Source: Vairimorpha necatrix (taxonomy: Eukaryota). Taken from it: a DNA stretch of 64,000 nucleotides. The notes beneath the pieces are model-generated. The model was given only the letters and a program-made list of their open reading frames with translations. It ran no database searches and was not told where the DNA came from. A program made the translations under genes and the position numbers. The stretch is from NCBI GenBank assembly GCA_036630325.1, contig CP142737.1, forward strand, positions 682,001 through 746,000, given 5' to 3'. Shown piece after piece: positions 16,622 to 44,000 of the stretch; the first letter of the stretch is position 1, and the number at the start of each line of letters is the position of its first letter.

Positions 16622-16814
16622 TTTTAAAGATAAAATACTTTGTTGCTTCTTATTTCATTTTATTCAATCTTCACTTTATGTTATACACTTAAAGACAATA
16701 TTAACATCTGTTTCTATTAAAATGCTCTGTATCTATCTGTGTTATTAATTTAAAATTTAGTTTAATAGACAAATACACATATGCCTGCATTTTTTATTAA
16801 TTCAAAATATGAGA

Positions 16815-18665
16815 TAAAATAAAAAATAAAAATGTTTATTGTAAAAAGACAGAATCAGCAAAACGAAGAAAAGCCACCAAGCCACCAAAAACTCCACCAA
16901 CCAGAAAAACATCAATAATTGCGTTTACACGCCAGCATACCTCAACGACCTCGCTTGTGGGAGAAAAATTTGTTCCCGTAAGTAACAGATCCTTAGTCAT
17001 TTCTGACTAAAAAAAAAAAAAAAAAAATTAAAATAAAATTATTTATTGTAAAAAGACAGAATCAGCAAAACGAAGAAAAGCCACCAAGCCACCAAGCCAC
17101 CAAAAACTCCACTAATAAAAAAAAAATCATCAATAAGTGCGCTTACACGCCAGCATACCTTAACGGCCTCGCTTGTAGGAGAAAAGTTTGTTCCCATAGG
17201 ATACATCCTTAGTCATAATATGACTAGAGACCCACTTTCATGGGTAAAAAATTAAAATTGTTTATTGTAAAAAAGACAGAATCAGCAAAACGAAGAAAAG
17301 TCACCAAGCCACCAAAAACTCCACCAACCAGAAAAACATCAATAATTGCGATTACGCGCCAGCATACCTCAACGGCCTTGCTTGTAGGAGAAAAATTTGT
17401 TCCCGTAGGTAACAGATCCTTAGTCATCTCTGACTACATATTTCGCGGACCTGACGAAAACACAACGCCTGGTTCAATACACCATTTAAGAACACGACTC
17501 AGTTCAGCGGAACAATACAGCTTCAGTATCATGCAGCATCTCCCAGGTTAAAAATATGAAGAATGACTCGAAAGTTAACGGTGTCCTTCTCGCCAGCAAT
17601 GGGTCTCCCACCCCTAGAGTATAGCTGGCCCTACTTACCAACCAGCAGCCGAAGGTTGGTAAGACTTAGAGATCTGCACCAAAAAATAAAAAAAATAAAA
17701 TTGTTTATTGTAAAAAAAAGACAGAATCAGCAAAACGAAGAAAAGCCTCCAAGCCACCAAAAACTCCACTAATAAAGAAAAAATCATCAATAAGTGCGCT
17801 TACACGCCAGCATACCATAACGGCCTCGCTTGTAGGAGAAAAGTTTGTTCCCATAGGATACATCCTTAGTCATAATATGACTAGAGACCCACTTTCATGG
17901 GTAAAAAATTAAAATTGTTTATTGTAAAAAAGACAGAATCAGCAAAACGAAGAAAAGTCACCAAGCCACCAAAAACTCCACCAACCAGAAAAACATCAAT
18001 AATTGCGATTACACGCCAGCATACCTCAACGGCCTTGCTTGTAGGAGAAAAATTTGTTCCCGTAGGTAACAGATCCTTAGTCATCTCTGACTACATATTT
18101 CGCGGACCTGACGAAAACACAACGCCTGGTTCAATACACCATTTAAGAACACGACTCAGTTCAGCGGAACAATACAGCTTCAGTATCATGCAGCATCTCC
18201 CAGGTTAAAAATATGAAGAATGACTCGAAAGTTAACGGTGTCCTTCTCGCCAGCAATGGGTCTCCCACCCCTAGAGTATAGCTGACCCTACTTACCAACC
18301 AGCAGCCGAAGGTTGGTAAGACTTAGAGATCTGCACCAAAAAATAAAAAAAATAAAATTGTTTATTGTAAAAAAAAGACAGAATCAGCAAAACGAAGAAA
18401 AGCCTCCAAGCCACCAAAAACTCCACTAATAAAGAAAAAATCATCAATAAGTGCGCTTACACGCCAGCATACCTTAACGGCCTCGCTTGTAGGAGAAAAG
18501 TTTGTTCCCATAGGATACATCCTTAGTCATAATATGACTAGAGACCCACTTTCATGGGTCTGATGAAAAACGAAAACGCCTGGCTCAATACACCATTTAA
18601 GAACACGACTCAGTTCAGCGGAACAATACAGCATCAGTATCATGCCCGACCTCTCCCAGGTCAAA
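16815..18665 (-). repeat. Tandem array of six units of two subtypes (A/B), includes a 657-bp higher-order repeat
   Basis: Units ~16815-17008, 17009-17244, 17245-17680, 17681-17901, 17902-18337, 18338-18665. Each begins on + with an A-tract then TGTTTATTGTAAAAAGACAGAATCAGC and ends at variable points. Confidence 0.95.
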
Positions 18666-19125
18666 TATATTTATTATATAAGTTTTCTTGTTAATAAATC
18701 AACGTCTCTTTCTTCTATTTCTAGATCTTCATTTTTTTAATTATTCTATATTAATTACCTTGTTTCGTTATCTCCTTAAGTTTCTTTTCAAATATAATTC
18801 TTCTAGAGACAACCATTCTATCTAAGAACTCTATAGTCCAACAAAGTTCTTTTATCTTATCTGGGTTATTTTTTAGTCCGATTTTATTACCAAGGAGTTG
18901 TTTGGTTTTTTCTCGGATATTTGTTTTTGAACAAGTCAGTAGAGGCAGTTTATTTTCAAAAGATGTTCTAATGTCAGTAAAACAGACGCACTCCAACAGA
19001 AAGTGTTCTAAATTTTCTTGTGGCCCATCACACAAAAAGCATTTGTTTCTATAACTCATTGTTGTGACATTCTCATGTCATTGTTTACTTTATATTTTTA
19101 TTATTAAATACCCCTTAACTTGGAT

Positions 19126-22346: not shown

Positions 22347-25300
22347 AGGGAGGGATGTTGTGACATTCTCATGTCATTGTTTACTTTATATTTTTATTAT
22401 TAAATACCCCTTAACTTGGATATGTCTAACACTCATTGGTATTCTTTTTGAATATGCTATTGCTGAGGACCACTTTACTAGATTACATCTCAATCTAGTA
22501 TATGTTCTAATTTTTCTATTGTTTATTTTGTTCATGACATATTTTATTTGTGAATTTCTTATGTCATATTGGTTTGCTATTGATGCAGCTAAAGAAGTAT
22601 TTAGAGTTCTTCGACTTCTTAGTACATCAATTATTTTTGTAGTGATAAATCTACTATCACTTGATTCATAATCGTTGCCGACAAATCGTTTTAACCATCT
22701 TTTGTTCTTGAACACCAGGAAGTTTTTCTTTCTTTCGGATTAATTGAAATTATATCCAATATGATTGTCTTATTGTGTTTCCACTTGTTGTATGCTCTAA
22801 ATCTACTTAGAGCTGCTTGTATATGAATTCGTTCGATACTGAACTCGTCCATTACTCTATCTAGTGGAACTAATACTCTTTTGAATATCATTCTGATAGA
22901 TTTTCTTAAGATCCTGTTAATCTTACCTGCTCTTGTACTTGACATTCCCCACAATTCACTGCCATACATTAATGTGGGTACTAGTACACATTTTATTAAG
23001 ATCGCCTTGAAGTAGAGATTGATGCTGCTATTCATCAACTTGGGCATCACTGCGTCTAAGGCTTTCTTGCCACGCATTGCTGCGTCTTTGACCAAGTGTT
23101 CTTCTAGCGTGTTTCTTTTAATTAAGACACCTAGATATCTGTATTCAGTGACTTCCTCAATCACACCAAAGTCTGTACTGAGAGAATACAAACTTCGGAA
23201 TTCTTGTATGTTAGAATGAGCATTCCATTCTAATATTCCGCTTTTTGTGCAGTTAATCTTCATTCTGTTATTAACCGCCCAATTAGAAATTCTATTGATC
23301 TTATTATTAAGATCATCAATGTTGTTTCCGAAGACAACAATATCATCTGCGAACATCAGTCCCGGAACTCTAGTATTTGGTCTTGGGATCAAAACTCCTT
23401 CTCTGCCGTCAAAAATATCATTGATGAATATATTGAATAGCATTGGAGAACAAGGGCACCCTTGTCTCACTCCTTTTTTGTAGCTATAACCACTTGACGT
23501 GTCACCACCAATTTTCACACGCATGGTGGTATATTTATAAATATCCTTTATTGTATTGATTAAATACAATGGGATATTAAGTTTTGTAAGCTTCTCAAAT
23601 AATAAGTCATGACTTACATTATCATAAGCTTTTTCAAAGTCAATGAAACACATTATTGTGTTCAGGCCTCCGAATTCTCTTCTTCTCACTATTTCTAGTA
23701 AAGATGTAATCTGATTCATACACTCTTCACCTGCTCGGAATCCTGCTTGGTATCTAGAGAGTATATCTTGTTCTTCGACAAATTGAGTTAACCTGTCATT
23801 TATTATCTTGAGATAGATCTTACTAATTGTGTTAATTAAAGAGATTCCCCTATAATTATTCAGATCTGTCTCATCTCCTTTTTTGTGAAGGCAAATTATG
23901 TTTGCCATGCTCCAATATTCAGGAGTACTATTTCCACAAATATATTTATTAAATTCATGTAGCACGAATTTAAAGAATTTATCTTCTACTGCTCTAGTCA
24001 GTAAGTGTTTGTATAGCTCGGTTGGAATCTCATCAGGACCGGCTGCTTTGTTATTTCCACATTTCTTCAGTGCGGATAGAAATTCTTCATCTGTTATCTC
24101 TGGGGGAAGATCAACAAGATCTACTTTATCATAGACATTGACATCTATATCATTCTCTGACGCCAATTCGGCGTAAAATTTATTCGCTATTTCTAGCTTT
24201 TTTGCTCGGCAAGTCTGAAGAAGCTTATTGTGGTCAATTAGAGCCACTTGATCCAAACGAATGGAAACACTTCTATTTTTCAGCCATTGCAGAATTCTCG
24301 GGATCTGTTACTTTTAAAGAGCTTTATTCCTCTTAAAGCCCAAAGTTTCGATCTATCTTTGCGAATCAACTTTTTAGTTTCGTCAACTCTCTTTTTGAGA
24401 TATTCGAATCTAATTGAGTTGATTTCATTGTAATTTTTCATAACAGCTCTTGCTGCTAGACGTTTTTCTTTGAAGACTTTTAAATATCTCCATCTCATTG
24501 TAAGTCCAGTATGGACTCTTCTCTTTTTGTAAATCTTCAAAGATGTACAAACTTTTTGAATAATCTCAGGAAGATTATTCATGTTTAATTGTTGATTACA
24601 CAACTTCTTTTTAAGCTTTTTAATCACTTTTGGATTTTCCAGCATCTTCTTATCATAAACTAGTTGATCTGAGATCTTATCAACGGCAAGTTTAATTTTT
24701 CTTTTGAGCACTAAGTGATCACTTAATACCCAAGACTTGGATATAATGATCTTCTCATTATCATTACTTTTTAGTCGAAAGATGGTATCAGTTTTCCTCT
24801 TAGATCTTTTACCATCTTTGAGGATCCTTGTACCATCGTTGCTGTTATATTTTATTGTAACTGGCAAACCAACTACATTTAGTTTTTTCTTGAGACTAGA
24901 ACTCTGCATATTCATATCTCCCATCACTATGATCTCACTATAGTTATTTCTGAAATTCTCTTTTTCTAAGAGAAATAATAATCTGGCCAAGACTTCTCTC
25001 TTGAGATCCTTGTCTTGTGGTACGTAGACATTTAAGATTAGATACTTAATCCAATTGCCTGCTGACCTAAACTCAACTTCAGTTTGCAGAATATTTGAGT
25101 CGGTGCCTTTTTTGGAACATCTGATTGCTCCATTATTTCTAACCAGAGTTATTAATCCTGGTTTATTTTTCCCACCACTAGGTGTTTCAACTGTAGCGTA
25201 TTTTTCAAGTTTCAAAGGTCTTGTAGATTGTCTCCAAGTTTCTTGTAAACACAAAATTTCTGGTTTCTCCTTCTTAAGAAAAAACTCAAGTTCTTCTCTC

Positions 25301-28300
25301 TTATTAGAGAGATGATTAATGTTTAGACTTAAGAGTTTTATGTTATCTTTATTCTTTTTATTTACTTTACTAGATTTCATTAGTTCTTTTCTATTATCAT
25401 TTAAACTTTAAAGCCTTTAGCTTCAACTGTCTTAATCAATAAATTTGCGTATAGTTTTTCAACTATTATTTTTGTAAAAGAAGTGTCTCTTCGTCTATAC
25501 TTTCTTGCTGTAATGATGGAATTCTCCAAGGAGAGTTCTTCTTACATAAGTCTTTAAGGAGATCTTTCACTCCATAAGGAATTCTTTGTATCTTGACAAT
25601 ACAATATTGTTCTTGTACTTTCTTCCACCACATATTCTTTCTAATAGAAAAATATTTGAGACTATTTAGTCTTGTTGGCGTTTTAAAAGTATTTTTAATC
25701 TGATTAAATCCAATTGAATTATGAATTTTTTTATTTAAAGATTTAAAAATAGATTTTCTGTTATAAGAAAATAGTTTCCTATAATAGCAGGACTTTAGTA
25801 AAGATACATTATTCATTATTAAAGTCCTTGGATTCTCGGGCAGGCTCACCCATCATATTTTCTAAATAAATGAAAGATTCATGGTTTGGTTTTTCTTTAT
25901 TTAATTCTTTAGTTATGTACCTACATGCTTTCACAAGTGGTACAAACTTTTTATGTGTTCCGGAGAGTCTCAGTAGTTCTCCTAGAACAATTTATTTATT
26001 AGAAGATAAGAATCCAGCGAAGAATTCTTCATCATCGCAGATGTCGGAACCTACAAATCTTTATTTAATTTTTTTAAGTACCTTTTGGCACACGTTTTCT
26101 CTAATCATCATGAGTACTACTTCTGACTCTTTAAATTGTTTTATAAGAGTGATATCTTTGCTTTGCACTTCCATCATCGCTGCCCAGGCATCTCTAGATT
26201 GGGGTTTCCCGTCCAAACCGAGTCCAGACACAAGAGCTAACTTGAACTTGCATTTAGAGATGTATCTACCACCCTTAATAATTTTCATGAGAGCTTCGTC
26301 TGATAGCCCCTCAGCCCAGTTTTTCTTTGGTAAAACTGAGCTTCCCCTTTTCTGAGATTTCTCACCTTTTTTGTTCTCCATTTTGGGGGTATAATTTTTT
26401 TTACGATTTTGTAATCTTTCTTTTTTCATGATCTTTTTTAGGAATGATAAATTTTCTCCTTAAAACTTCATAAATAGTATTTTTGGGCACTTTTAAATTG
26501 CCACTAGTTTCTACTTCAAGTGATTTAAATCTATTAAAGTTGGTTTTATTTGTGGTTTTACCACTTCTGTTTTTCTTCAAGTCTATCTGGACTTTGGGCT
26601 TGAATGTGTGTTTGACAGATGTCCATCCGTCTTCATTTGTATGGTAAAGTTTTACTCCATTCTTAGGAGCTTTTCTTTTACCAGCTATAATAGCAGAGAT
26701 AGTTGACAGATGTCTAACTACTGCTTTTTACTTAAAAGAAGCTATATCTAGCTTAACATCTTTTGTTTTAATATTTTTATTAATTATAGTATTTGTAGAT
26801 GTCTTTGAAACATCTATACATTTTCATTTGCCATCTTCGGACAATCGATCTTCTTCTTCTACTTTGACAGTAGAGTCGATGTTTTTGACATTAATCAAAA
26901 AATCTTCCTTTATAATTTCTAATTTAGAAATATCATTATTTCCAGTAGCTAACTGAAAAGTTTCGCTACTGGTATCATTTGGAACATCGGAGTTATTATC
27001 CTTTTGTTCTACACATTCTTTTGAGTGATTCTCAATCATTATGTGGTATAATGGATCATACCACATGATTGTTAAAAACCAATAAATACTTAAACGCTGA
27101 TGCTTCTTCGGAACGATCAGTTATGGTCGACTATTATTGGTCAGCCAAATCTTATTTCTTCCTATTGGTTACCATGTATATAAATAAAGAAATTCCATGA
27201 ACAAACATGGTACAACTACAAACACTCTTCCTTCTACAAATCAGATAAATAAAACTCTTTCCATAACAATAAACAATCCTTTCACTCTAACTCTTTTAAC
27301 TCCGGTTTTCACGGCTCCCCAAACCGTAGCATCATTGAATGCTTTCTTTCTACAGGCAAGCTCCCCGGTAAACACGCCACATTATCTCAATTTTATTTTT
27401 TGATGCTTCAGTAATTTGATCACTGTCATCCATCAGATTATTTTTAATAAAATTTTTTAGTTTGATGTTTAGTCTTTCTAGCTCGTCATGGAAGAGCTCT
27501 GTTGTACCTCCTGCGGAAGTACAACTCCAATAAAGATAAGTTAAACCTATAATGTTTATTTCTTATATCTTCCATACCCCTAAGTATGGAATTTTCTTTT
27601 ATATTTTTTTATTGTTTATTTACAGGGCAAACAAATCAAGAAATGTCAAAAATGATATGTTTGACATGTGGGGTACCACATCCTACCCTCTTCTTTTAAT
27701 GTCTTTTATGTGGATCCAATTTCCTCCTTCGTTCACTCTGGCCCAGATTCCCTTGTTTCCAATTTCTTTGATTGTGTGTGGTCCTTTATACTGTTCATCC
27801 ATCTTACCTGCGTTGAATTCTTTAATAAATACTTTTTCGTTTATTTGTAATTTTTTATCATTATTAAGGTTTGGTATAATGGGAGTTGTTTTATTTTTAG
27901 GCTCTTTGTTGGTGGTTTGCCTTTTGAATGGGTCAAAGAAACTGTATTTTTTCTCCAGTTCGAATGGTGAGCATCCGATTTTTCTTTTATAATTGACGTT
28001 TAGCTTGATGTTGATTTTATTTGTTGTTTCTCTGATGTTATTAGATCTATTCATTCTTAAGCACTCAGCTATTATGCTGTTTTGTCTTTCGGCCATTCCG
28101 TTACTTTGTGGATGATATATTGGGGTGTTTATAAGTTTAATTCCCCTACAGTTTCCGTATTTTTCTTTTAGTTTTTTGCCTGTGAATTGAGTGCCGTTGT
28201 CCATGATAATTTTTTCCGGCTGTTGGAATTCTTGTATCCATTTATCTATACATTTTATTATGGTATCTTCCGTGATGTTTTACAGTAGGTATACCCTTGA

Positions 28301-28797
28301 GACTCTTGAATAGACATCTGTTATGGACAGATAATATGCCTTGTGATGAATATCTTCATAAATGAAGTTTTCGAGTTCAAATGGTCCAAATATGTCCATT
28401 GCAACCGTTCCGTACATTTTATCGGAGGTTATTTGTAATTTCTGAATTTTTACTTTTTCTTTCTTGTTTAGGTTGCATATTTTGCAGTTTTTTGTTACAT
28501 TAATTATCTTGCTTTTTATTCCGTTGATGCTGTAAAAGGGAGATAAATTTTTGTTCAATACGACTATTCCTGGGTGACCAGCAATTTCATGTATCTTTTT
28601 TAGAAAGTTTTCGGATTCGGAGTTTTTAATTATTATTTTATCATCTTTGTTCTTTTTCCAGTTTTTTGTCCCAGATTTATTTTCAGATATTTTCTCTGCA
28701 TATAAGTCTATTGTATTTATTAGATCGTTTTCGTACTTAGCTTTTTCTGTTCTGAAACATCTTGATAGATGATCTGCTACGGTGTTGTCTTCATTAG

Positions 28798-31700
28798 TGT
28801 GATGACTTTTATTAATGAATGTGAAACATCATCACATTAATCATTTAGTTTATAATATTTTCTCAAACTAAATGTCATTCATTTGTTTGTTTGTTTACAA
28901 ACAATTAAATATTTAAAATATTTAAAAATAGCCCCTCACCAAAAAAAAAAAGGATGATGAACCATAAAAATAATAAATCTCAAAATAGTAAAAATAACAT
29001 GTACAAACAACAATTAAATAATCTCATTGAGACGTACCTCCGCTTGGGGTACGTCAAGTTGAATTCAACGAGTGAAATCCCAAGCAAGGTGAAACTGTCG
29101 AAATACCAAGGGAAGCAGGCAGAAAAACTAAAAGGAAAATATATTACATTTGAAACCAAAATAGAAGGTTTAGAACAAAGGTTCACTACAGACATCTATT
29201 ACATTGAAGATATACGGTCAATAGATATTATAGAATGGTTAAAAGAGATCGAGAAAATCTCAGAAGAAAACCAATGGAATTCTAAACAGCTCATGATGGT
29301 AATTAGGAAAATGAGTAAAGACTCATTGATCGAGCAAGAGAGGATAGTGGAAGATTTTTTCTCCACACGCGATTATCTGATCGGTCTTAGATTTCCGATA
29401 GAACATAGCAGAAGCATATTAACAGAACTAGCTTCTATTAAACAATTAAGCTATGAAACCATCCAAGAATACATCCAAGAAATTAAAGAACTAGTTAACA
29501 TTTATGCCGTAATAAATAAACTCTCAAAAACAGAGTTCAATAGACGAGTAGAAGAGACTTTTTACAATGGACTTGGTCCATATACAGATGGAGAGCTTTT
29601 CAAGCATGATTTTAAAGACTATAAAGATGCAATTAGATTTCTTTACACGTTAGAAAAGAAAATAGTATCTAAACAAGTAATACTAGAGAAGAAAGTTTTA
29701 GATCCTATAAGGAAAGAACCCTATAAAGGGACTTTAGAGGTAGTAAGCAATAACAAGTGGTGCAAATACCACAAGAAGAATGATCACGATTCAAAGGATT
29801 GCGAGACTTACCAGAAATTTATAAACGAAAAAATTAAGAATAGGGATGAAAAACAGAAAGGAGAGACTAGGAACTTGATTATTAGCGAGAAAGGAATAAA
29901 TACTAAAACACCCGAACTACAAGGGGTAATTAAAAAATACCAAACGTCATTTTTTATGGACTCGGGAGCTTCAAGGAACTTCATAAAAAGAGAAGTTGCC
30001 CTTAAGCTAAAAATACCTATCGTCGAGGATTCTCCAATAACTATAAAATACGGAAATGATGACATGGAAGAGTGTACTGAGACAGTTAATGAGGAAATTA
30101 AAATAATAGGAGCTAAGTCAAGCCACGTAGTTAAATTTTACTTACTGAATAACTTACCAGTCGAATTTGTATTAGGAAACGAATTTCTTAGTAGTAACGA
30201 AGTAATAATGAATTATAAGAATCAGACTATAATAATCAACGGTGATGTGATCAGTACAAAGAACCAAGAAGACAGTGAATCAGACATCGAAGATTTAGAT
30301 AAAATTTTAATTGAAAGCCTGTGTCTGTCTTTAGAAAATCTTAATAACGACGAATTAAAACGTTATATTTATTCATATGTAAAAACCAATTCTTCTTATA
30401 AACAAATAAAAATAGCACCGATAGAAATAAGGATGAGACAAGACATTAAAACACCTAAACCAAAATTCTACAGTGTTCCACATAAACATACAGTCGGAGC
30501 TAAACGAGAACTACGAAGGTTACTAGAAAATGATATAATCGAACTCTCAGATTCGCCATATGCCAGCCCGGCATTTTTAATAGAAAAAAAGAATAAAGAT
30601 TTGAGACTGGTGGTCGATTATAGAGAAATAAACGAATATGTCATAGATGAGGTTGCGGCAATACCCAATATAACAGAAAATATTATGCAAATGGGAAGCG
30701 CTAAATGGTATACAAAAATCGATCTGAAGAACGGTTTCAACCAACTATACATAAAACCCGAAAGTCGGAAATTTACGGCGTTTACATTATTGGGAAGACA
30801 ATACCAATACAAAAGGGTCCCATTTGGAATTCGTTCAGGACCTTAAATTTTTCAAAAAACAATCATCAAAATACTAGAAGACATAGATAATATATTTGTT
30901 TACATTGATGATATAATAGCCTTTTCACCAGACCTTAAAAGTCATATAAAAACCGTGTCAAAAATTTTAAGAAGACTCAAAAGTTATGAAGTAGCAATAA
31001 ATTTTGAAAAAAGCGAGTTTTTTACTAATAATACCACGATACTAGGAAACGTGATTTGTGAAAATACTATGAAACCAGAACTAACGAGCATTCAGAAATT
31101 GTTAGCACTCAGAAACCCTAAATCAAAAAAGGAGCTGCAAAGAATAATTGGCATAATGAACTGGTACAGACCTTATGTTTCTAACTTGAGTGATAAAATT
31201 GCGAACATTACAGAACTGCTTAAGAACACAAATACAGGAATACTTTGGACTGACAAACACAAAGATATAGTAGCGCAAATCGCAGTTGATATTAGTAAAG
31301 CTACACTTAAGTTACCAGACTACACGAAGAAATTTGTTATACAGTGCGACGCTTCGAATAATGGCATAGGAGGTGTACTCTTTCAAGAAGGAGGAATACT
31401 TGGATACTACAGCAAAAGCTAAACAGTACCGAAAAGAACTATTCAATAGTCGAAAAGGAATTATTTGCTATTATTAAGACGTTAAATCATTTCAGAAATA
31501 TCATATTAGGTTACTATGTAGAGGTATCTACTGATAATAAAAACTGTTTACTACCGAACAAGCAAATATCTAGCAGGATTGAAAGGTGGAAGTTAATATT
31601 GAACCAGTTCAATATCAAAATAACGTCCATATCTGGCACAAAGAACGTAATAGCTGACAGCTTATCTAGAAATTTGATATTAACGACAAGTCAAGAAGTT

Positions 31701-33016
31701 ATAGACAAAACGAGATACTTAAATGAACTTAATCAGTTCGTTATGAAAACAAAAGAAACCCCCAATATTTGGGCTAAAGACAAGAAAAACAGAATAATAA
31801 TAGATAATGATCAGTCAAGGAATTTTTTGGATTATATGCATCGAAGAACTATACACGTTGGATCTACAATTCTTTACAATAATATTAAGCATATATTCAA
31901 AGTTACAGGTGTAAAAAAGTTAATTAAAGAAATTACAAGTAACTGTATCAATTGCATCAGAACGAAAAATAATAAGAAAAAAAACCGATCTTATAATAGT
32001 ATTGTAGCCTCTGCACCATTCGAAAAGATATCGAGTGACATCTATGGACCATTTAGTCTAGAGAACTACATACATAACGGTACATGTCATAAGGGATATT
32101 ATATCACTATTATAGACGTATATACGAGAACGCTAAGAGTATACTTTACATATAAGGTTACAGCGGAGCGTATAATTACATGTATTAAAGACTGGATAGA
32201 AGTTTATGGAAGGCCTAAGACCTTTATATCTGATAATGGAACTCAATATGATTCAGAGAAGTTAATTAAATATTGTGCAGAGCACGAAATACAAAAGATA
32301 GCAACTCCTATATATCACCCAAGTAGTAATGGTATCAGTGAGAGGCTGAACCAAACAATCACGCAATGCCTCAGGTTATATAAAGGTAGAAATCTGAAAT
32401 CAGTATCAGAAGGAATCCACATAAGACATAACCACAACTATAATACTGCACTTAAAGTATCTCCAACTACCTTTTTAATAGGACACAGTCCATATGATCC
32501 TTTCGGGATTAAAAGTGATAAATTACAAACTAGCTGTAGAGAAAATACCGAGAAGTCGGGCGGAAATAGGAAGTCCCCAGTTTTCAAAATAGGTCAACAA
32601 GTTTTCGTGAGAAACTTTAAAGCAAAGAAATTAGATGATCAATATTTAGGACCGGTGACAGTAACTAACGCAGGAAAGAAAGGAAAGTGGTATAAGTTAG
32701 AGGGATTTGAAAATGAAATACATGAAGATGACATCAAATTCGGCGGAGTGGGCAGGATGTGATGACTTTTATTAATGAATGTGAAACATCATCACATTAA
32801 TCATTTAGTTTATAATATTTTCTCAAACTAAATGTCATTCATTTGTTTGTTTGTTTACAAACAATTAAATATTTAAAATATTTAAAAATAGCCCCTCACC
32901 AAAAAAAAAAAGGATGATGAACCATAAAAATAATAAATCTCAAAATAGTAAAAATAACATGTACAAACAACAATTAAATAATCTCATTGAGACGTACCTC
33001 CGCTTGGGGTACGTCA
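28798..33016 (+). mobile_element. Ty3/gypsy LTR retrotransposon nested in the 27500-35822 element
   Basis: Identical 259-bp LTRs 28798-29056 and 32758-33016 (TG..CA); TSD attag 28793-28797 and 33017-33021; PPT ggagtgggcagga. Confidence 0.97.
28954..32762 (+). pseudogene. Gag-Pol of the 28798-33016 element
   Basis: WCKYHKKNDHDSKDC, MDSGA, VDYREIN, YIDD, QCDASNNG, HRRTIHVG..CINC, SDNGTQY; in-frame TAA 30844-30846 and frameshift ~31420. Confidence 0.93.
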
Positions 33017-35869
33017 ATTAGCTATTTGTTTTATACTGTAGTTGTATTCTAGCATCATCGCGTCCCATCTTTCTATTCTTCTGCTTATTTTGCTTTTAAA
33101 AAGGCAGTTCCTATTATCCGTGTGTATTTCTACATAATTTCCAAGTATAATGTTTCTACATTTGTCCATTGCGTAGACTATCGCGAAGTATTCTTTCTCT
33201 ACTATTGTGTAGTTTCTTTCTGTTTTATTGAACTTCATGCTTATATTTAGTATTATTCCGTGTTCCTGTGATAATACTGCTCCCATTCCGAGTTCTGAGG
33301 CGTCGCAGTGTAGTGTAAATTTTTTGCTATAGTCTGGTAGTACTAGGTAGCTTTTATTTTTTAGTTTGTCTATTAGCTTATTTATCGTTGAATTGTCTTC
33401 TTTAGTTAGTTTAACTATCTGTTCTTTCCCTTTTAGTTTTTCTGTTAAATTTAAAATTTCTAAGCTTAAATTTGGGATGTATTTCCTATACCAATTGAAT
33501 ATTCCTATTATTTTCTGTAGGTCTTTTTTGGTTTTACATTTCATGTTTTCGATTAGTTTACTGTCTTTAGTGAGAGGGTACATTTTACCGTTAAAGATTC
33601 TTGTTCCTAGAATTTCTGTGTCTTTGGTGCAGAATTCTGATTTAGCGAAGTTTACAATTACGTTGTGCTTCTGTAGCCTTGTAAATAATTCTTTGAGTGT
33701 GTTCAGATGAGACTCGTAGTCCTTCGTGGCTATAATTATGTCGTCTATGTATACCGATATATTTTTGATTCCGAAGAGTATTTTGGTTCATTGTTTTCTG
33801 GAATGCTTTGGGGCCATTTTTTAATCCGAAAGGGAGTCTTTTGTATCTGAATGTTTTGCCGAATATAGAGAATGCTGTCCATTTCCTGCTTTCTTCTGTT
33901 AGGAGTAATTGGTTAAATCCATTCGTCAGGTCCAATTTGCTTATTACTTCGCTTTTTCCGATTTGATAAATGATATCGTCCATCTTTGGAATTATTTCTA
34001 CTTCGTCTTCGATAAAGTTATTAATTTCTCTGTAGTCTATTACTAGTCTTATCTTGCCGTTTTTCTTTTTCTTAAAGAATGCGGGGCTGGTGTTCCTTTC
34101 GTTGCATTCCTCGATTATATTAGAGTCCAATAGTCGTTCTATTTCTAGTATTGCGTCTTCTTTGTAGTTTGAAGGTACTGCATAATTAATTTTCTTAAGC
34201 TTTATGTTGTTTTTAGACACTTGTAATTTGACTTGATCTGTGTTTATTGGGTCGCTTTCTTTAATTTTGCTTTTATAGTCATCTATGATTTTATGTAATC
34301 TTGCTTCATCTTTTGTAATGAGTGTTTTCTCAAAAGGTTTTTGGAATTCTGTTTCTTCTTGATTAGTTTTCATACTCATGGTTGAGTTGTTCCAAATTAT
34401 TTTCCTTCTTGTAAAGTCAAGTATAATTTCATTTCTCGATATAAAGTCTCTGCCAAGTAATATATTAACCGGTAAGTTTTGTAATAGATATAATTCTATT
34501 TTACATGTTTCGTTTTTCCCCTTCGGCTGTAATTCTAATTCTATTAACGTACTGGTGGTTTCGTTTGATTTATTTCCAAACATTACCTGGATCTCTTTAC
34601 TTTCTCTGGTGGTAAGATTCCATTGTTCTACGAGGTCTGCTTTGATGAAGTTTAATCCTGCTCCACAGTCTAGAGTTCCTGTTGACTCGTGTTTCTTATT
34701 GATTATGAGTGGAATGTCGAGTTGTTCGACAATAGTAGGATTTTCTAAAATAACGTAGTTTAAAGAGTTTTTATTTTCTCTGGGTTCTGAAATCTTCCTC
34801 GTTGTATTCTTTAGGTTCAAGTTGGTATCGGGAGCTACTGTCTTCTTGTTGAGGTTAAATTTTTCGTTTTTAACTTTGCTAATATTTGATCGATTTGTTT
34901 CGTTGCTTTGCCCGCAATCTCTCGTTGTATGTCCCAGAGTTTTGTGGACTTTACACCACTTTTTCATGAATCTTATACTTGAGATGTTGTTTATCTTCCT
35001 CGGTATGTTAAATCTTGTTATGATGTTTTCTTCCATTCTTTTCAGGGCTAATATGATTTCAAGTGGTGTTTCGAGGTTTTGTATCTCAAGATATCTTACC
35101 GTTTCTAAGTTAAGTCCTCTGTAAATGGATTCCTTTGATCTTCGTTCGTATTCTTTCTGGCTGCAATTAGATACCTTACTGTAGATGGTTACTCGTTTCA
35201 TGATTTCGTTTATGTAGTTATCAAAGAAAATGTAGTCAGTTTGTTTTAGATTATCCAGTTCTACTATTAAGTTCTCGACTCTCTTCTGTGAGAACACCTG
35301 TGAAATGATGTAGTTCTTGTTTTCTTCGTAGTTATCTTTCAAATTGGCTTTGTCTATAATCTGATCTTCAATGAGATCGAATAAAAATAGCTTTTTTGTC
35401 TCTTCGTTCCATTGATTCCTTTGGAAAATTTCTTCAATTTTCTTAAACCATCCTAGTAGATCGATTTCGTAGATATCGTCAATCATTTCTACATTTTTGG
35501 TGATTCCTAGGTCCACTTCACCTGTCTTAATTCTTATAGAGACTACTTTTGCTTCTTGAGTTTTAGAATTGTGTCCTGCGATTTCTTTTCCTCGCGTGGG
35601 TTGGAGTTCATGATGTTTGTACTCTCTTATTGAATTCAATCTGTCGTACCTCCTGCGGAAGTACAACTCCAATAAAGATAAGTTAAACCTATAATGTTTA
35701 TTTCTTATATCTTCCATACCCCTAAGTATGGAATTTTCTTTTATAATTTTTTATTGTTTATTTACAGGGCAAACAAATCAAGAAATGTCAAAAATGATAT
35801 GTTTGACATGTGAGATACCACAAGCTCCAAATATGTCTGCTGAATCAATACTAATTCAGTAGTGCTGGA

Positions 35870-37152
35870 TAAAAAAATAAAATAAAATAAAATTGTTTAT
35901 TGTAAAAAAAAGACAGAATCAGCAAAACGAACAAAAGCTTCCAAGCCACCAAAAACTCCACTAATAAAGAAAAAATCATCAATAAGTGCGCTTACACGCC
36001 AGCATACCTTAACGGCCTCGCTTGTAGGAGAAAAGTTTGTTCCCATAGGATACATCCTTAGTCATAATATGACTAGAGACCCACTTTCATGGGTCTGATG
36101 AAAAACGAAAACGCCTGGCTCAATACACCATTTAAGAACACGACTCAGTTCAGCGGAACAATACAGCATCAGTATCATGCCCGACCTCTCCCAGGTCAAA
36201 AGGTTGGTAAGACTTAGAAATTTGCACCTAAAAAAAAATTAAAATTAAAATTGTTTATTGTAAAAAAGACAGAATCAGCAAAACGAAGAAAAGCCACCAA
36301 GCCACCAAAAACTCCACCAACCAGAAAAACATCAATAATTGCGATTACACGCCAGCATACCTCAACGGCCTCGCTTGTAGGAGAAAAATTTGTTCCCGTA
36401 GGTAACAGAACCTTAGTCATCTCTGACTACAAATTTCGCGGACCTGACGAAAACACAACGCCTGGTTCAATACACCATTTAAGAACACGACTCAGTTCAG
36501 CGGAACAATACAGCTTCAGTATCATGCCCAACCTCTCCCAGGTTAAAAATATGAAGAATTACTCGAAAGTTAACGGTGTCCTTCTCACCAGCAATGGGTC
36601 TCCCACCCCTAGAGTATAGCTAAAAAAAAAATAAAAAAATAAAATTGTTTATTGTAAAAAAAAGACAGAATCAGCAAAACGAAGAAAAGCCTCCAAGCCA
36701 CCAAAAACTCCACCAACCAGAAAAACATCAATAATTGCGATTACACGCCAGCATACCTCAACGGCCTCGCTTGTAGGAGAAAAATTTGTTCCCGTAGGTA
36801 ACAGATCCTTAGTCATCTCTGACTACATATTTCGCGGACCTGACGAAAACACAACGCCTGGTTCAATACACCATTTAAGAACACGACTCAGTTCAGCGGA
36901 ACAATACAGCTTCAGTATCATGCCCAACCTCTCCCAGGTTAAAAATATGAAGAAATACTCGAAAGTTAACGGTGTTCTTCTCACCAGCAATGGGTCTCCC
37001 ACCCCTAGAGTATAGCTGACCCTACTTACCAACCAGCAGCCGAAGGTTGGTAAGACTTAGAGATCTGCACCAAAAAAAAAAAAATAAAATTGTTTATTGT
37101 AAAAAAGACAGAATCAGCAAAACGAAGAAAAGCCACCAAGCCACCAAAAACT
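35870..37152 (-). repeat. Tandem array of four units, rDNA-proximal part of the same repeat family
   Basis: Units ~35870-36228, 36229-36621, 36622-37071 and 37072-37152, near-identical to the 16815-18665 units. Confidence 0.95.
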
Positions 37153-37154
37153 TT

Positions 37155-37250
37155 AGAGATCTGCACCTAGTTAAAAAACATCGGTCCCACCCTCCGCGAC
37201 GTGGACGCTCTCTTATAGTATACAACACCTACTATGCATACAAAAAAAGC
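37155..37250 (-). ncRNA. Putative HDV/CPEB3-like self-cleaving ribozyme at the LSU rRNA 3' end
   Basis: P1 GCUUUUU/GGAGGGU, P2 AGAGA/UCUCU, P3 GCG/CGC, L3 UCCACGU, P1.1 CC/GG, P4 ACC..GUU-UUUU-AAC..GGU, J4/2 G-C-A-G-A; every element is in canonical order. Confidence 0.8.
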
Positions 37251-37471
37251 AGTAACCTCAAAATGTCGGCATACACCTTCATTCTTACAGTTCTGCTTAA
37301 AAGAGTAGCATTCTCCTATATATATCTTTGAGCTACGCTTCAGGCTTAAGAGGCTTTCAGCCTTAATCGAAACGACGTAGCTAAGCAACATAACTTAATA
37401 GTTAATCGCACTACCAGTGGTCATCACTTAGAGTTCCTCTCGTACTATCAAAGTTCACTCAAAAATACTTA

Positions 37472-37513
<42 letters not shown>

Positions 37514-37948
37514 TCTCACGTTCCTCATTACCGGGTGAACAATCCAACACTTCGTAACATATACACTACGATGATCAGAAGAGACGACATCGAAGAATCA
37601 AAAAGCAGAGTCGCTATGATCGCTTGCCTGCTACAAGCCAGTTATCCCTGTGGTAACTTTTCAATCACCCAATACATAATGAATGTAATTGGGATCGCTA
37701 GGCCAAGGTTTCCCTACTAAATACAGTCATATGCATAAAGTAAAGCAGATTTATTCCCTTATAATAAACTGATGGTTACCATCCATCATTCATCTACCTT
37801 AGGACAGCTGTGTTACTTTTTAACAGCTGTACCGCCCCAGCCAAACTCCCCATATATTCTAATAAATAAATATTCAAACATACTAGTGGTTTCACAATAC
37901 TTCTCCCACCTCTCTACAATATACCGAATATTTATTAAAACATACTAA

Positions 37949-37980
<32 letters not shown>

Positions 37981-38079
37981 GATAAATAACAAGCCCGTTC
38001 CCTTGTCTCGTGGTTTCACAAAATTGTAAGTAGGGACAGTAGGAATCTCGTTGCTCCATTCATGCGCGTCACCAATTAA

Positions 38080-38132
<53 letters not shown>

Positions 38133-39726
38133 ATTCGCTTACACAACTTTAACAATAAATGCACTGGGCAGAATTCACTTCTTGTAAATACAAAAAGCTA
38201 TGTTTTTAATAAACAGTCAGATTCCTTACATAGTAAAAGTTCTAGCATGCTAGAGCCAATCTTTATCCCAAAGTTACAGATCTAATTTGCCGAATTCCCT
38301 TACTTACTTTAATTTAAAATATTTGTTATGATACAAAGACACCTGATGCGGTATAGGTACGGTTAAAATTATTTTATTTTTATCAAGTATATATAATTAA
38401 CTATTTCTTATCATGACAATCCATAGTTAAAATAAAATTTAATTCATTTATCTTAAATTTATTGAAATATACTGTCATTATCAAGTTGCCTTATAATAAT
38501 TTAATAAAGAATTATTAATCTTTTTTGTTTTTAAAAATAACACCGATTCACTTCAATAATAATTGAAAACCCTAGTCTATATCTATACAAATATATTGTT
38601 ACTGCCTCCAAGATCGGCTCATTTGTTTCTTCTATATATACTCACATATATACTTCAATACAAACAAATTGCACAGCTACCTAAATATTCATTAGAAACA
38701 TCTCATAAAAGTAGTAATCTTCTTCCATTTTATACAATAATACATTCGGTAGGTACGTTGTAACACGTTTCTTAGCGGATTTCTACTTCCATAACAACCG
38801 CCCTACTGTCTCAATGTATTCATCATATTTATGGTATAATATCTACTATTTAGAATATTTAATGTTTCATAAGGTTCATCCCTTTTTGCACATCATTCTT
38901 ACAATCATGTGCCCACTAGTTATACAATAGATTCATTATATAAATTTAATTTATATAATTCCATAGAATTAAAGATTTTTCATAGTTAAAAAACTATAAC
39001 AGTGTCCTACATCTATGTCCTATATAATAATAACTGCTGTCCTGAGAGACATTTCGCTGTGAACCAGCTACCACACAGTTCGATTGGTCTTTCGCCACTA
39101 TACACATCTTAAATCATCGATTTGCACGTCAGAATGATTATGGTCTTCCAATAAACTGTTGTTTATCTTCAACCAGAACATGTATAGTTCACTGTGTTTC
39201 GGGTCTTATAATTATAACTAATCAAGTTAATAAAGATTAAAAAATTTAATTTTTATCTTGCTATAATTATAATCTCCTTGGTCCGTGTTTCAAGACGGGT
39301 CCTTAAAAATAAGGCTAAACTCCACACATTTTCACAAGTTCCTTCGCAGTACTTATTTTCTATCGGTATACCATTATATTTAACCTTAGATATTTCATTC
39401 TACCTTTATTCAAACTGCACTACCAAGCAGCTCTACTCAAGTACATTATTCTATTCTATTAATAACGAATATAATATTCTCTATAAATATAATTAATAGA
39501 ATAAACCATTTACAACTCCAATTAAGGATTACAATGGAGGGTCTTTTCTTGTTCACTCGCTGCTACTAAAGAAATCCTAGTTAGTTTCTTTTCCTCCTTT
39601 TAATGATATGCTTAAGTTCAAAGGGTTATCAATACATTATAAATATATTAATTAGGTAAATAATATAATTTCGTATTCTATTACGACCTTCATCGTTATG
39701 GTATCCTATTGATCCCATGTGTGGGT
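37251..39726 (-). rRNA. Large-subunit rRNA with 5.8S-equivalent fused at the 5' end (reduced microsporidian type)
   Basis: Conserved cores GAACTTAAGCATATC, GACCCGTCTTGAAACACGGACCAAGG, CTCTCTTAAGGTAGCCAAA, GGGATAACTGGCTTG, GGGTTTAGACCGTCGTGAGACAGG and sarcin-ricin loop AGTACGAGAGGAAC; ends approximate. Confidence 0.97.
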
Positions 39727-39762: not shown

Positions 39763-41009
39763 TTATGATCCTGCTAATGGTTCTCCAACAGCAACCATGT
39801 TACGACTTATATCAGATCTAATACATATTGTTCAAGTAGTTTTCACTAATTTCACAACACATATCATCTTAGATAGCGACGGGCGGTGTGTACAAAGAAC
39901 AGGGACACATTCAATTCTACTTATTTAATAAAATTTACTAGCAATTCCAAGTTCAAATATCTCTTACAAAATATTATCCCATAAAGATTATATATCTATT
40001 GTATTGCGCGTGCAGCCCAAAATGTCTGAGGGCATAACGGACCTGTTTTAATCCTTTCCTTCCTACACTGATTGTGTCTGTCTATTAATAAAAGGGTCTC
40101 ACGTCTTGTTGAAATTAATCAAAACTTCACAGCATCCATTGAAAACGGCCATGCACCACTATTATCATTCTCAGATTATATATCTTCTCTGAATAATAAA
40201 ATATTGGTAAGTTACCTCGCGTTGAGTCAAATTAAGCCGCACAATCCACTCCTTGTGGTATTCTTCCGTCAATTTCTTTAATTTTCAATCTTGCGATCAT
40301 ACTATCCCCAGAGCCAAAAAACTCAAATTTCTATCATCTAATACAATTAATATCATATCACATCGTCGGCATAGTTTACTGCTGGAACTACAATGGTATC
40401 TAATCATCTTCGCTCCTCCAGCTTACGTCCTTGTTCAAAAAATACATACAAGTGTACAGCTTTCGCTTCTGTTCGTCCAGTCAGGGTCGTCACATTTCAT
40501 CTCTCTCCCAACTATACAGTACACCTCATATTGCTTCTTAAATATAAACTACGGACTTTTTAACTGCATCAATCATCATACACACTCTTGGAACAAGTAT
40601 TACCGCGGCTGCTGGCACTTGATTTGCCCTCCAATTAATCACCTCATATACTTTTACAATATGAAACAATAGAATATTACTTCCCATAACTGCCTCAGAT
40701 AAAATCCATAGGTCAAGTTTCGCCCCTGCTGCAATCCTTAGACTTAGTAGCCGTCTCTCAGGCTCCTTCTCCGGAATATTACAAAGTAATACCGTTACCC
40801 GTCATTGCCTTGTTAAGCCATTACCTTAACAACTAGCTGATAGGTCTCACTCTTACTGTATATGTCTTATGCTACACTTTAACGCAGCTATACTAATTTA
40901 ATACATTAAATAAAATGAGTATTACTGAGCAGTCCATTTTTCCATATCAAAAACATGCATGGGTTAATCTTAAGGAATAGCGTCTACGTCAGGCAGAATC
41001 AACCTGGTG
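39763..41009 (-). rRNA. Small-subunit rRNA (~1247 nt), Vairimorpha/Nosema-type
   Basis: Starts CACCAGGTTGATTCTGCCTGACG; contains GTGCCAGCAGCCGCGGTAA, GTACACACCGCCCGTCG, AAGTCGTAACATGG; ends GCAGGATCATAA. Confidence 0.99.
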
Positions 41010-44000
41010 TTGTGTAAAAAAATTAATATATTTGATTTTAATCAGTATTTATGAAAATATTAGAAATAAATATATTTCTTAATACAAATTCTTATAATAT
41101 AAAATATGAAAACTATAATTGTTTAAAAATACTTAAAAAATGATATAATATCAGATTGGATGAAATAAAATTTTACAAGGGTAAAAAATTATTTTAATAA
41201 ATCAGCAAATGATTGATTAATCACTGATTCACTGATCAAAATTGTGATCTGAGATTAGCAACATTTATAATTGTGTAAAAATTGTATAAAAAACATGAAA
41301 TCTAAATGATGCTTTATAAAGAGTTGAATCTACATGATACTACAGTATTATACATAACACAACTTATACTGACAATTTATCTTAAATCATGATAATTCTG
41401 ATAATTAAATGATTTAATATCTAATTCTCATATATAAAATTATATTGTCTATTATACATACGTTTTGTTTATTTGTCGACCAAACAACAAAACAAGAAAC
41501 TTGACATCTATATATGATATCCCAAATATCATAAAAATGGTTTAGAAATATTTCCCGCCAAATTCTTCCAGTTTTCCCTCCAACATTTATTTAATCATTT
41601 TATCCGGAGAGGGGTACGGAGTAATGGAAAGAAAATTTAAAATTAACAATAAAAACATTTTACATACTTTCCTCAGTGGTGGATACCACACTATATAATG
41701 ATAGATGCCAAATTGACGTCGACTTATACATAATAAAAATATTATATAAACTTTTCCATGGTGAGTTTGTGATGTATAATACAAATAAATGCATCATGTA
41801 TAATTGTATATTAATTTATGTAGTATAAAGTACATATGCTCTTAAAATATATTTTTATTTCTTCACTTACTGATAGCTTCATTGGCCTTGTTCCTATTTG
41901 ATTACATGCACTTCTTTTTTTATTTTTAATGTATGTTTTAACAAGAATACTTATTGTTTGTATTTTACATTATAAATATATTCCTAAAGTTTTTTTATTG
42001 ACTTTTGCCGGTCAGTGATAAGATGTTTGACAGATTTATTTTATGTGATATGTCATTATGACATTACAGTAGACCTACAAAAATATAAAGTTATACAGGT
42101 TTATTTTGTTAGCTTTTGATAAATACAAACAAAAGTAGTGGATTTTCTTAAATATAAACATTGAGCCACAAAATTAACATATAAAACGATGAAACACATA
42201 AAAAAATTATAAATCAACATACCATCATGACCAGTCCACTTATTTGGCCGCGACAAAAAGATTAATATTTTTTTTGGGGGATAATTTTTAAGACATTTAC
42301 ATATAATTTTACTTAAAGAGGTGTTGTAAATGTATATAACCAACGTGGGAAATCGATGTAGCTGTTACAAGAATTGTAAATTTTTTAAAGTAATATCTCA
42401 TCCTTTTTTGAAAATGTTTTTAATGATTTATGCAGGCAAACAAATCTCTACTTGTAAAAATATGTTTCGTCAATATTTGATCGGATACTATAGCAAGAAA
42501 TTATAAAAAAACATATATTTCTAAAATATTGAGTTTCTCATTGATATATATGTTTTAAACTATTTAAATACTCAAGAATAACATTAAATTATTTTTTCTC
42601 TCGGTGATCTATTTAATTTGACTGTAATTAACAATATTTACAAGTAACCCCCGTTTAGTGAAAACTTCAATTTAAATTTATAAGATTATGTTTCTGAATT
42701 TGTAAAACGTCTTTGTGTCTCTCGGGATATATTGTCTCCAACAAAAAATTAGAAAATATTAACAAAATGCATTTTAATGTCTAAAAAAAGAAAACAATAA
42801 TTTTTTAGAAATAGGCTCTTGATTTAATAAAGAAAATTTTTTTTGTCAAAAACAGTCGTATAAATATAAAATAAATAGATTCCGATTATAAATTAAAAAT
42901 ATGAAAATAATTTTTGCATTAGATTAGTGAAATAAAAAAATATACAATTGAGAATTGTCTCATGGCTTTAGGTTTTTTGCGAAGCGACCCAAAAAACTCT
43001 AGAATTGGGCTATAAGGGCTTATTTCTACTTCCGTACTTTATTTTCTAAATTTTCTCTGGGTTCCAAATTCATTTTATGTATGTTGTCTGTATCATGTCT
43101 CACTGCAGTCTTCTAGCTCTAGTTCAATTGCATATATACTGTGGTGTTTGAACAATAACATATAACGTATTTTACAGTTCATACGTTTTCTATAAGCTTT
43201 ATTTATTTTTGCTATAAACAATGACAACTAAATATGGTTTCAATAGCTAAAGAAATCATTGTATCGTTAATCTTTTTGTCGCAATGTATGAGATACAGAA
43301 CTTACAACCGAGTTTTGATTTCTAATAAAACACTAGTAGAATCTGATTCTATTTTCATTTAGATTAAAACCAATCCAAAATGTTTTTAGGTCTTTATTAT
43401 CGTAAAAAATCTAATACTTCATTTTAAACTATAATTAATTTCATTTATGCGAAATTATTATACGCCATATAAAATGTGTAAACTTCGTGCTCTTTTTAAT
43501 TTATACGTCAATATGTTACAGTATAGTAGAATTTGAATTATGGATTTTTATATTATAAATTATAATTTTTTCTGGATTATTTTTATATTGGCGATAATTA
43601 TATTATAGATATTTGGCTTTTGTGTAACATATCTTTACATTGAAATACGAAGAAGTAAAAAACAATGACAGAATGTACATAGTTGTTTGTCTAAACACCC
43701 TAACGGTTTCAGGCATTTAATAGGATGCTTAAACTTCCTATTTGAGTTCAGATTTATGTGGTTCGTGTTAAAAATCTTTCCAAAATAAAAATTACTGCAA
43801 TATCTTTTTTATCTAAATTTTTTTTAGACATAAAGAGCCGATTCGATTATTTTTAAAAAAATATTTGTTTTAGAAACAGGATCAATTACATTGTATTGTC
43901 CAGACAAACATAAACACCTTATGTTGGACTTCCAATATCTATTTACATATAACATTTATGCATTTTCTCATATTATAAAGTTTTTCTTGAATAAAGTAGT

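Follow-up and report, generated by a model that had tools for sequence, protein, structure and literature searches.

Downstream of an rRNA gene in the microsporidian Vairimorpha necatrix, a 15-nt sequence corresponding to the 3' half of a predicted HDV-like ribozyme occurs repeatedly, which raises the question of whether these ribozyme tails are kept for a function or are what insertion has left behind. We examined them in a 64,000-nt stretch of contig CP142737.1 (positions 682,001 to 746,000, hereafter the window) and in the genome that contains it (15.0 Mb on 12 contigs; G000 in coordinates). An initial annotation of the window had read the tails as target-site duplications, with each insertion leaving one intact ribozyme beside the rRNA, had suggested that nearby tails could serve as alternative 3' halves, and had taken a tail with two substitutions as support for the ribozyme.

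The rDNA unit

Two rRNA genes of the unit are annotated on the minus strand of the window.

39763..41009, minus strand: SSU rRNA gene, microsporidian type (Rfam RF02542, 1052.8 bits)
37224..39648, minus strand: LSU rRNA gene (RF02543, 1340 bits; 3' end at ~37224 placed by model)

The LSU 3' end is a model estimate, as the archaeal and eukaryote models differ: the alignment to the partial archaeal model RF02540 stops at 37224, and that to the eukaryote model RF02543 continues to 37108, 116 nt beyond. On the 5' side of the SSU gene, a ~180-nt repeat (window ~41500-41690) occurs at no fewer than 20 further genomic places with 86-94% identity. Retroposition of whole rDNA units was considered and dropped; the units have 0.8-1.8 kb upstream of the SSU in common.

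A ribozyme-headed element and its partner LINE

The tails derive from a non-coding element of 485 nt (reference copy L016:182-666) that consists of the HDV-like ribozyme (nt 1-71), ~110 nt of further sequence, a LINE 3' UTR from ~nt 181 and a T-rich tail. Over its last ~305 nt the element corresponds to the 3' UTR of a 5.75-kb, two-ORF LINE of APE type (reference L019:760-6508), of which intact copies exist with an ORF1 of 557-558 aa and an ORF2 of 1242 aa. In an intact copy, ORF2 contains an APE domain (Pfam PF03372, Exo_endo_phos; aa 175-320; 25 bits against a cut-off of 24.5) followed by an RT domain (Pfam PF00078, RVT_1; aa 658-910), and this predicted order of endonuclease and RT identifies the partner as an APE-type LINE. 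A Pfam search with ORF1 gave no match, and its predicted structure has a pLDDT of 32. The LINE carries no ribozyme of its own and begins at its ATG. The 23 full-length starts (L019:760 and 22 others) lie at the ORF1 ATG or at most 4 nt away, with no 5' UTR, and the full-length copies include several 5' sequence variants. Target-site duplications of 15-18 bp were found at 9 of the 23 starts; those of element and LINE together range from 12 to 18 bp.

We classify the element as a non-autonomous, SIDE-like non-LTR retroposon because it combines a LINE-shared 3' end, a variable tail, target-site duplications and 5'-truncated copies with the absence of a sense-strand ORF. It lacks the Pol III head from tRNA, 5S or 7SL that strictly defines a SINE; ARAGORN detected no tRNA in it and Rfam gave no match. 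Genome searches with the ribozyme head as query returned element copies only. Element and LINE have their final 3' sequence in common and close with a T-rich tail that varies; these tails are sense-strand T runs interrupted by A that come after AATAAA and are not poly(A) (for example, window 35869-35888). Directly after the ribozyme, the element contains a perfect 10-bp hairpin (L016:252-285). The stability of whole-element and part folds did not exceed that of shuffles.

The LINE 3' module was also found by itself. Truncated modules start at nearly one base, ~310 nt from the 3' end, at a minimum of four unrelated junctions (window 36201, minus strand, and units C7:329k, C4:800k, C4:835k (two), C12:497k and C3:1034k), and this common start possibly reflects a short, discrete RNA or a site of strong reverse-transcription arrest. 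Over its first 90 nt, the module is conserved even among LINE copies that are just ~80% alike. A resemblance of the module to U1 snRNA was considered, but an Rfam search, without a match, gave it no support.

Homologues of the LINE RT region among named entries come from Vairimorpha ceranae (67-69%) and Nosema granulosis (50%). In a metagenome scan the best 80 of 414 loci were all distant (22-37%), and the ribozyme model found nothing convincing there, with two matches at E 0.37 and 0.46. A dispersed, untargeted relative within the genome (G000:C3:786199-789475) is 69% alike in the RT yet 89% alike in the 3' module and would be useful for finding the determinants of targeting. An ORF fragment at window 62997-63557, which we take to resemble the restriction-like endonuclease of R4/Dong-type elements, was rejected as the partner; it has no Pfam match, and the common 3' end points to the APE LINE.

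Ribozyme tails in the window

The array downstream of the LSU gene reads as follows, from the rRNA outward.

37153..37167, minus strand: 5' copy of a 15-bp target-site duplication (ribozyme tail)
37072..37152, minus strand: 81-nt 5'-truncated insert (element nt 419-485 and T-rich tail)
37057..37071, minus strand: 3' copy of the 15-bp duplication, running on into element nt 72-485
36621..37056, minus strand: rest of this young A-type element copy and T-rich tail, 98% to L016:182-666
36232..36620, minus strand: second A-type segment (nt 111-485) and tail, a 396-bp tandem repeat of the first
36214..36230, minus strand: variant ribozyme tail, read as the displaced 3' half of an older resident copy; 5' partner absent from the window
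35869..36213, minus strand: short spacer, LINE-type 3' module (~310 nt) and T-rich tail, from sequence alignment
35823-35871 and 27380-27499: further LINE ORF1 pieces
22425..27042, minus strand: broken partner-LINE body (part of ORF1; APE and RT of ORF2), 95% to L019:760-6508
18338..19061, minus strand: 3' end of the partner LINE with 3' UTR and T-rich tail, severed from the body by an LTR element at 19060-22431
18323..18337, minus strand: ribozyme tail directly after the T-rich tail of the LINE; upstream partner not found
17666..17680, minus strand: DNA-level duplicate of the 18323 tail (657-bp tandem duplication, 654/657 identical, same T-rich junction)
16810..18322, minus strand: distal array of element bodies and truncated 3' modules

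The three exact 15-mers reported initially (17666-17680, 18323-18337 and 37057-37071) and the two-substitution variant at 36214-36228 are all present on the minus strand, and a fourth exact copy, at 37153-37167, belongs to the rRNA-adjacent ribozyme itself. Allowing up to 3 mismatches, the window holds 6 tail matches against 0.87 expected, a number reached in 0 of 100 shuffles; the sixth (33626, 3 mismatches) lies inside an LTR-element ORF. Genome-wide, a degenerate tail pattern gave 57 matches at no more than one mismatch and its reversed control gave none. Two details of the annotation need revision. The tail was placed at the 5' end of the repeat unit; it is nt 57-71 of a unit that starts 56 nt earlier, at the P1 strand. 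The tails at 17666 and 18323 were counted as separate instances and represent one event, duplicated in tandem.

The proposal that orphan tails arise by target-primed insertion with duplication agrees with the junctions. The copies at 37153-37167 and 37057-37071 flank the 81-nt truncated insert, and unit C12:497k has three occurrences of the variant tail, set around two full-length insertions whose duplications measure 16-17 bp. No target has been used more often than the ribozyme tail, which accounts for 10 of 63 distinct 3' junctions (11 of 69 before identical ones were merged) compared with 2 for the next sites. At 36214-36228 the variant tail is preceded by a T-rich tail and followed by the short spacer and the LINE-type 3' module, which is identical to the LINE 3' UTR in 295 of 311 aligned columns and to the A-type element in 272 of 315. 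This region matches the resident copy behind the C7:329k rRNA unit over 104 of the first 105 nt, junction included, and the variant tail is found within complete heads at C2, C4 (two), C7 and C12. As the upstream partners of the 36214 and 18323 tails are missing, the history of both is reconstructed, not read off.

Other mobile elements were observed in the window. LTR retrotransposons with gag/pol-type ORFs are nested inside the LINE at 27498-35822 and 19060-22431, bounded by 183- and 76-nt direct repeats, and a 260-nt repeat (28798, 32758) marks a further nested LTR-element copy. A DNA transposon, presumably Merlin-like, is present in two copies (8102-9310 and ~49575-50686) with ~90-nt terminal inverted repeats and a 343-aa transposase-like ORF.

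Element arrays behind LSU genes

The genome has 18 LSU 3' ends, and element/LINE arrays lie behind 17 of them; these counts are not independent, as the rDNA units have a common ancestry and some arrays are duplicates (the C4 pair and the C5 pair). The eighteenth end (C10:158k; G000:C10:158266-158447) lacks both its last ~24 nt and an array. Every element segment in the arrays (179 of 179) has the orientation of the rRNA. With 40 of 49 candidate RT-region matches scored, all 32 above 80% identity were downstream of an LSU end and the remaining 8, at 68-70% identity, were located elsewhere. The insertions have used diverse target sequences, among them LINE, element and unrelated DNA, which indicates a preference for place, not sequence. 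A few copies of the element, mostly older, occur outside the rDNA zones (C12:403k, C7:990k, C10:882k, C1:265k and C12:541k), so targeting is not absolute. Clustering could in part come from selection, which does not readily explain the orientation.

In all 9 units that have at least two RT regions, the distal LINE was more diverged than the proximal one; the corresponding Spearman coefficient was -0.52 (p 0.002, 31 copies). A cruder first age test, in which all 43 LINE segments were compared with a single reference, did not reach significance (rho -0.23, p 0.14). Since distal copies are more diverged, new insertions appear to land near the rRNA end and to push older ones outward. The zone may be recognized through tethering to Pol I or its termination complex, for which the interaction of TRE5 ORF1 with TFIIIB, as described in PMC5911963, offers an analogy.

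The ribozyme fold and the copy beside the rRNA

In intact heads the predicted pairing, in element nucleotides, is:

1-7 with 29-35: P1
11-15 with 65-69: P2
16-18 with 26-28: P3
20-21 with 36-37: P1.1
39-41 with 57-59: P4
61: catalytic C

The nested double pseudoknot of HDV (P1, P1.1, P2, P3 and P4 in order) is complete, with all 20 pairs, in 19 of 44 model hits, and the catalytic position, first in J4/2, is C in all 44. A catalytic C at this place is part of the definition of HDV-like ribozymes given in PMC10879173. We wrote a sequence-independent descriptor from the HDV topology alone and obtained 23 matches in 428,772 bases of rDNA-downstream sequence, compared with 0 in 5 shuffles; 22 of the matches are at element heads and one is an AT-rich chance match. 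The minimum free energy structure of the intact head includes P1, P3 and P4. The head matched no curated Rfam ribozyme family at E up to 10. Covariation in an alignment of 16 heads, in which four resident rows are one column off in P1, gave 3 pairs with two-sided change, a score reached by 172 of 500 shuffles; two changes are clearly compensatory (P1 pair 7 and P2 pair 13), and overall covariation does not exceed that of shuffles. We rejected a hammerhead-like CUGAUGA...GAAA (plus strand, 36096-36111) since its GAAA is missing from A-type copies.

The 5' ends of the element are more informative. All 28 full-length 5' junctions start at P1 nt 1 and follow 25 different 12-nt upstream flanks. At 13 of the 28, a duplication of 12 bp or more abuts P1 nt 1 without a gap; these measure 12-17 bp, apart from one that reads 25 and runs into the T-tail. 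Three other junctions gave gapped, AT-rich matches of 8-13 nt, and 12 gave no duplication. The search pattern was anchored on P1, making the start partly a matter of construction; the duplications and the unrelated flanks are not. Abutting duplications and unrelated flanks are the trace expected of an RNA cut at the HDV site and then retrotransposed. The best evidence for a ribozyme, although indirect, is therefore the full-length copies that start at the predicted cleavage site between duplications, not the two substitutions. Among 24 sequencing runs compared by shared words for RNA evidence, one unclassified run had a share of 0.73 and the other 23 had shares of 0.06-0.07, too small to speak either way.

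In the window, the head closest to the LSU gene is incomplete:

37153..37223, minus strand: rRNA-adjacent HDV-like head without the P1 5' strand, 100% identical to element nt 10-71
37213-37209, minus strand: P2
37208-37206, minus strand: P3
37205-37199, minus strand: L3
37198-37196, minus strand: P3'
37195-37189, minus strand: P1'
37188-37187, minus strand: P1.1'
37185-37183 with 37167-37165, minus strand: P4
37163, minus strand: catalytic C
37159-37155, minus strand: P2'

At the P1 position the 7-mer has two mismatches in place of a 7-bp P1, the minimum free energy structure of this head is another structure and not the ribozyme fold, and the sequence-independent descriptor found no complete ribozyme in the window. 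The expectation that every insertion leaves an intact ribozyme beside the rRNA thus fails here, where the copy has lost its P1 5' strand, and it fails more widely: a strict pattern detects an intact ribozyme in 13 of 17 units, no further than 470 nt away in 12 of them and at 7.1 kb in the other, and it detects none in the 20-41 kb examined of the remaining 4, the window included. Other units have a decayed ribozyme-like stretch after the LSU and a second head ~40 nt further. In the window these two are fused at the common AUAAGAGAGCGU stretch, so that its head has P2 onward and no P1 5' strand.

The variant tail and selection on the fold

Both substitutions in the variant are compatible with the fold, as the initial annotation had stated. 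G63A keeps a purine in J4/2, for which the consensus is CNRA, and C66U turns the P2 pair G14-C66 into G.U. The variant is a single inherited haplotype and does not serve as evidence of selection. The chance that both changes would be compatible is 0.06 over all 45 changes, 0.017 over the core 13 nt and 0.14 for G>A/C>T only, on our own assignment of roles to positions. CAAA is present in 12 of 44 model hits, old dispersed copies included, suggesting that CAAA is probably ancestral and CAGA derived; UUUCU is present in 5 of 44, mostly rRNA-proximal copies. Collecting the genomic tails, as had been proposed, gave a divided answer. All 44 retain the catalytic C, but invariance is not special to it, with 18 of 71 positions invariant and most copies young; among 8 substitution types in nt 57-69, 4 keep the fold and 4, in old copies, break it. 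Resident copies with the variant tail also have weakened P1 and P1.1. Taken alone, the duplicated tails and the two substitutions are ordinary insertion footprints.

Origin of the tails

We consider it very probable that the tails are by-products of a LINE and its non-autonomous partner inserting by target-primed reverse transcription just downstream of LSU genes. RNA polymerase I would read through the LSU end, the ribozyme would cut the element free at its 5' end, and LINE proteins would bind the common 3' module and copy the RNA back near an rRNA 3' end. As the insertion zone is full of earlier copies, new insertions split old ribozymes and leave the tail on the far side. In the window, a young copy would have inserted into an older resident copy, at the tail of the latter, and the 5' end of the young copy would have been joined at the common AUAAGAGAGCGU stretch beside the rRNA, removing the 5' half of the resident. 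This would have moved the variant tail of the resident ~940 nt outward, to 36214-36228, and deprived the head beside the rRNA of its P1. Tails displaced in this way are, in all likelihood, without function of their own.

The initial annotation held that the rRNA-adjacent ribozyme stays intact and that the tails are selected as alternative 3' halves through an expanded P4. We regard this as highly improbable. The tail at 37057-37071 is just 96 nt from the first, and the P1 strands of R2 ribozymes can be more than 700 nt apart (PMC3774820), but such halves are not called for in the window, where the nearest tail is complete and it is the local 5' strand of P1 that is lacking. A perfect P1 7-mer does exist at 39542, but 2.3 kb away inside the rRNA, where its use would cut the LSU, and nearby alternatives in the LSU pair weakly (-4.8 and -2.6 compared with -12.0 kcal/mol); we put down to chance both the long-range partner at 39542 and the weak ones at 37306 and 37250. 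The compatible substitutions and the unchanged catalytic C speak for selected halves, but the invariance is shared with other positions of mostly young copies and the variant is inherited by residents whose P1 and P1.1 are weakened. There is similarly very little to recommend a reading of the arrays as satellite-like repeats spread by recombination or gene conversion, with tails from unequal crossing over and no current retrotransposition. The 657-bp and 396-bp tandem repeats in the window, the upstream sequence common to the rDNA units and the near-identical C4 and C5 pairs would suit it, but it would not account for intact LINE ORFs, fixed 5' starts, T-rich tails that vary, or 12-18-bp duplications at numerous unrelated targets, and the duplications already largely refute it.

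A host origin of the ribozyme is unlikely in our view, yet deserves more weight. Here a natural HDV-like ribozyme of a eukaryote with no stand-alone Rnt1-type enzyme would cut, or have cut, pre-rRNA at the LSU 3' end on behalf of the host, as a substitute for Rnt1-type RNase III; a LINE homing to the Pol I read-through zone would have captured it when a truncated LINE tail landed ~180 nt behind, and the mobile element would now reseed a working cut behind most rRNA genes while the original decays. In 17 of 17 units the ribozyme-like head is placed so that its P1 nt 1 would coincide, to within 1 nt, with the first base beyond the modelled LSU end, and in two units a P1-like 7-mer and J1/2 persist there. 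The 17 units are copies of one ancestor, however, so the coincidence counts once; an insertion ratchet, in which insertions advance as far as the last position tolerated, would give the same picture, and the LSU end comes from the partial archaeal model, with the eukaryote model 116 nt further. In every one of the 17 units, this LSU-end head has decayed. A reseeded cut would fit the 12 of 17 units in which an intact ribozyme lies no further than 470 nt away, but not the 4 units without a strictly intact one in the 20-41 kb examined. No LSU terminal 12-mer is duplicated behind any tail, and the ribozyme is confined to the element, being absent from the LINE and returned by head searches in element copies only, as a host origin would have it. 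The sole RNase III match, a lower bound from a search in which few candidates were scored, is one Dicer-like ORF with two domains, but this enzyme or another nuclease could make the cut. As precedents, a ribozyme in place of the Rnt1 site terminates Pol I nearly as well in yeast (PMC3045592), and Theta ribozymes lie within 5 nt of tRNA 3' ends (PMC10879173). If the ribozyme produces or once produced the LSU 3' end, this would be the natural counterpart of the arrangement engineered in yeast, and the retroposon would have been born from, and would partly serve, rRNA processing.

Relation to known elements

The element resembles the R2/R1 hybrid SIDEs of Drosophila as described in PMC3414825, which are likewise non-coding, join an HDV-like ribozyme head to the 3' end of an APE-type LINE, have 14-bp duplications, are mixed with their LINE in tandem rDNA arrays and are presumed to be cut from an rRNA cotranscript. 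Those elements combine an R2-derived ribozyme and an R1 3' end with insertion at one fixed site, the R1 site within 28S (PMC3414825), whereas here insertions use many target sequences in a zone that lies downstream of the LSU gene and outside it, with 12-18-bp duplications and T-rich tails, in a microsporidian host with dispersed rDNA. The genome yielded no R2 donor for the ribozyme. In its targeting, the pair resembles TRE3 of Dictyostelium discoideum, a two-ORF non-LTR element with APE, RT and zinc finger. According to PMC5911963, TRE3 is co-oriented with the RNA gene downstream of which it inserts, its targets lie 40-150 bp behind tRNA genes transcribed by Pol III, and it has an oligo(A) end. 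The pair lies behind LSU genes, has a ribozyme-headed partner and uses a wider zone, in which the first full-length, duplication-flanked LINEs begin ~0.1-2.7 kb from LSU ends. Anchored to LSU 3' ends, it works like TRE3 and is not a member of that family. Its anatomy is that of an R2/R1 hybrid SIDE and its targeting that of TRE3, and it belongs to neither.

A 5' ribozyme that releases a retroelement from a cotranscript is also described for L1Tc/NARTc, RTE, baggins and SINE-associated HDV-like ribozymes (PMC6765202, PMC3383444, PMC4035085). As here, their copies conserve the sequence downstream and differ upstream. In L1Tc the autonomous element carries the ribozyme (PMC6765202), whereas here it is found in the non-autonomous partner only. 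The decayed head at the LSU end recalls Theta ribozymes, HDV-like, with their cut site at the 3' end of a stable RNA gene. These have a minimal fold, belong to phage tRNAs and were shown to be active (PMC10879173); the present case involves rRNA, a longer P4 and a decayed gene-end copy. For microsporidia, a review table of elements in rDNA lists MITEs only (PMC10946416), and the account of variable Nosema rDNA flanks in PMC3566094 names no such elements. Our search of titles and the beginnings of abstracts, in a collection with few subscription papers, gave no description of a LINE/ribozyme-headed pair and no paper with both microsporidia and an HDV-like ribozyme.

Non-LTR elements that choose a position are known from tRNA genes, and those that choose a sequence from sites within rRNA genes. 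If its insertion behind each dispersed rRNA gene is position- and orientation-specific, the LINE with its ribozyme-headed partner would be a Pol I counterpart of TRE3, and at 71 nt the ribozyme is easy to assay. Such a pair would be a safe-harbour strategy in a compact parasite genome.
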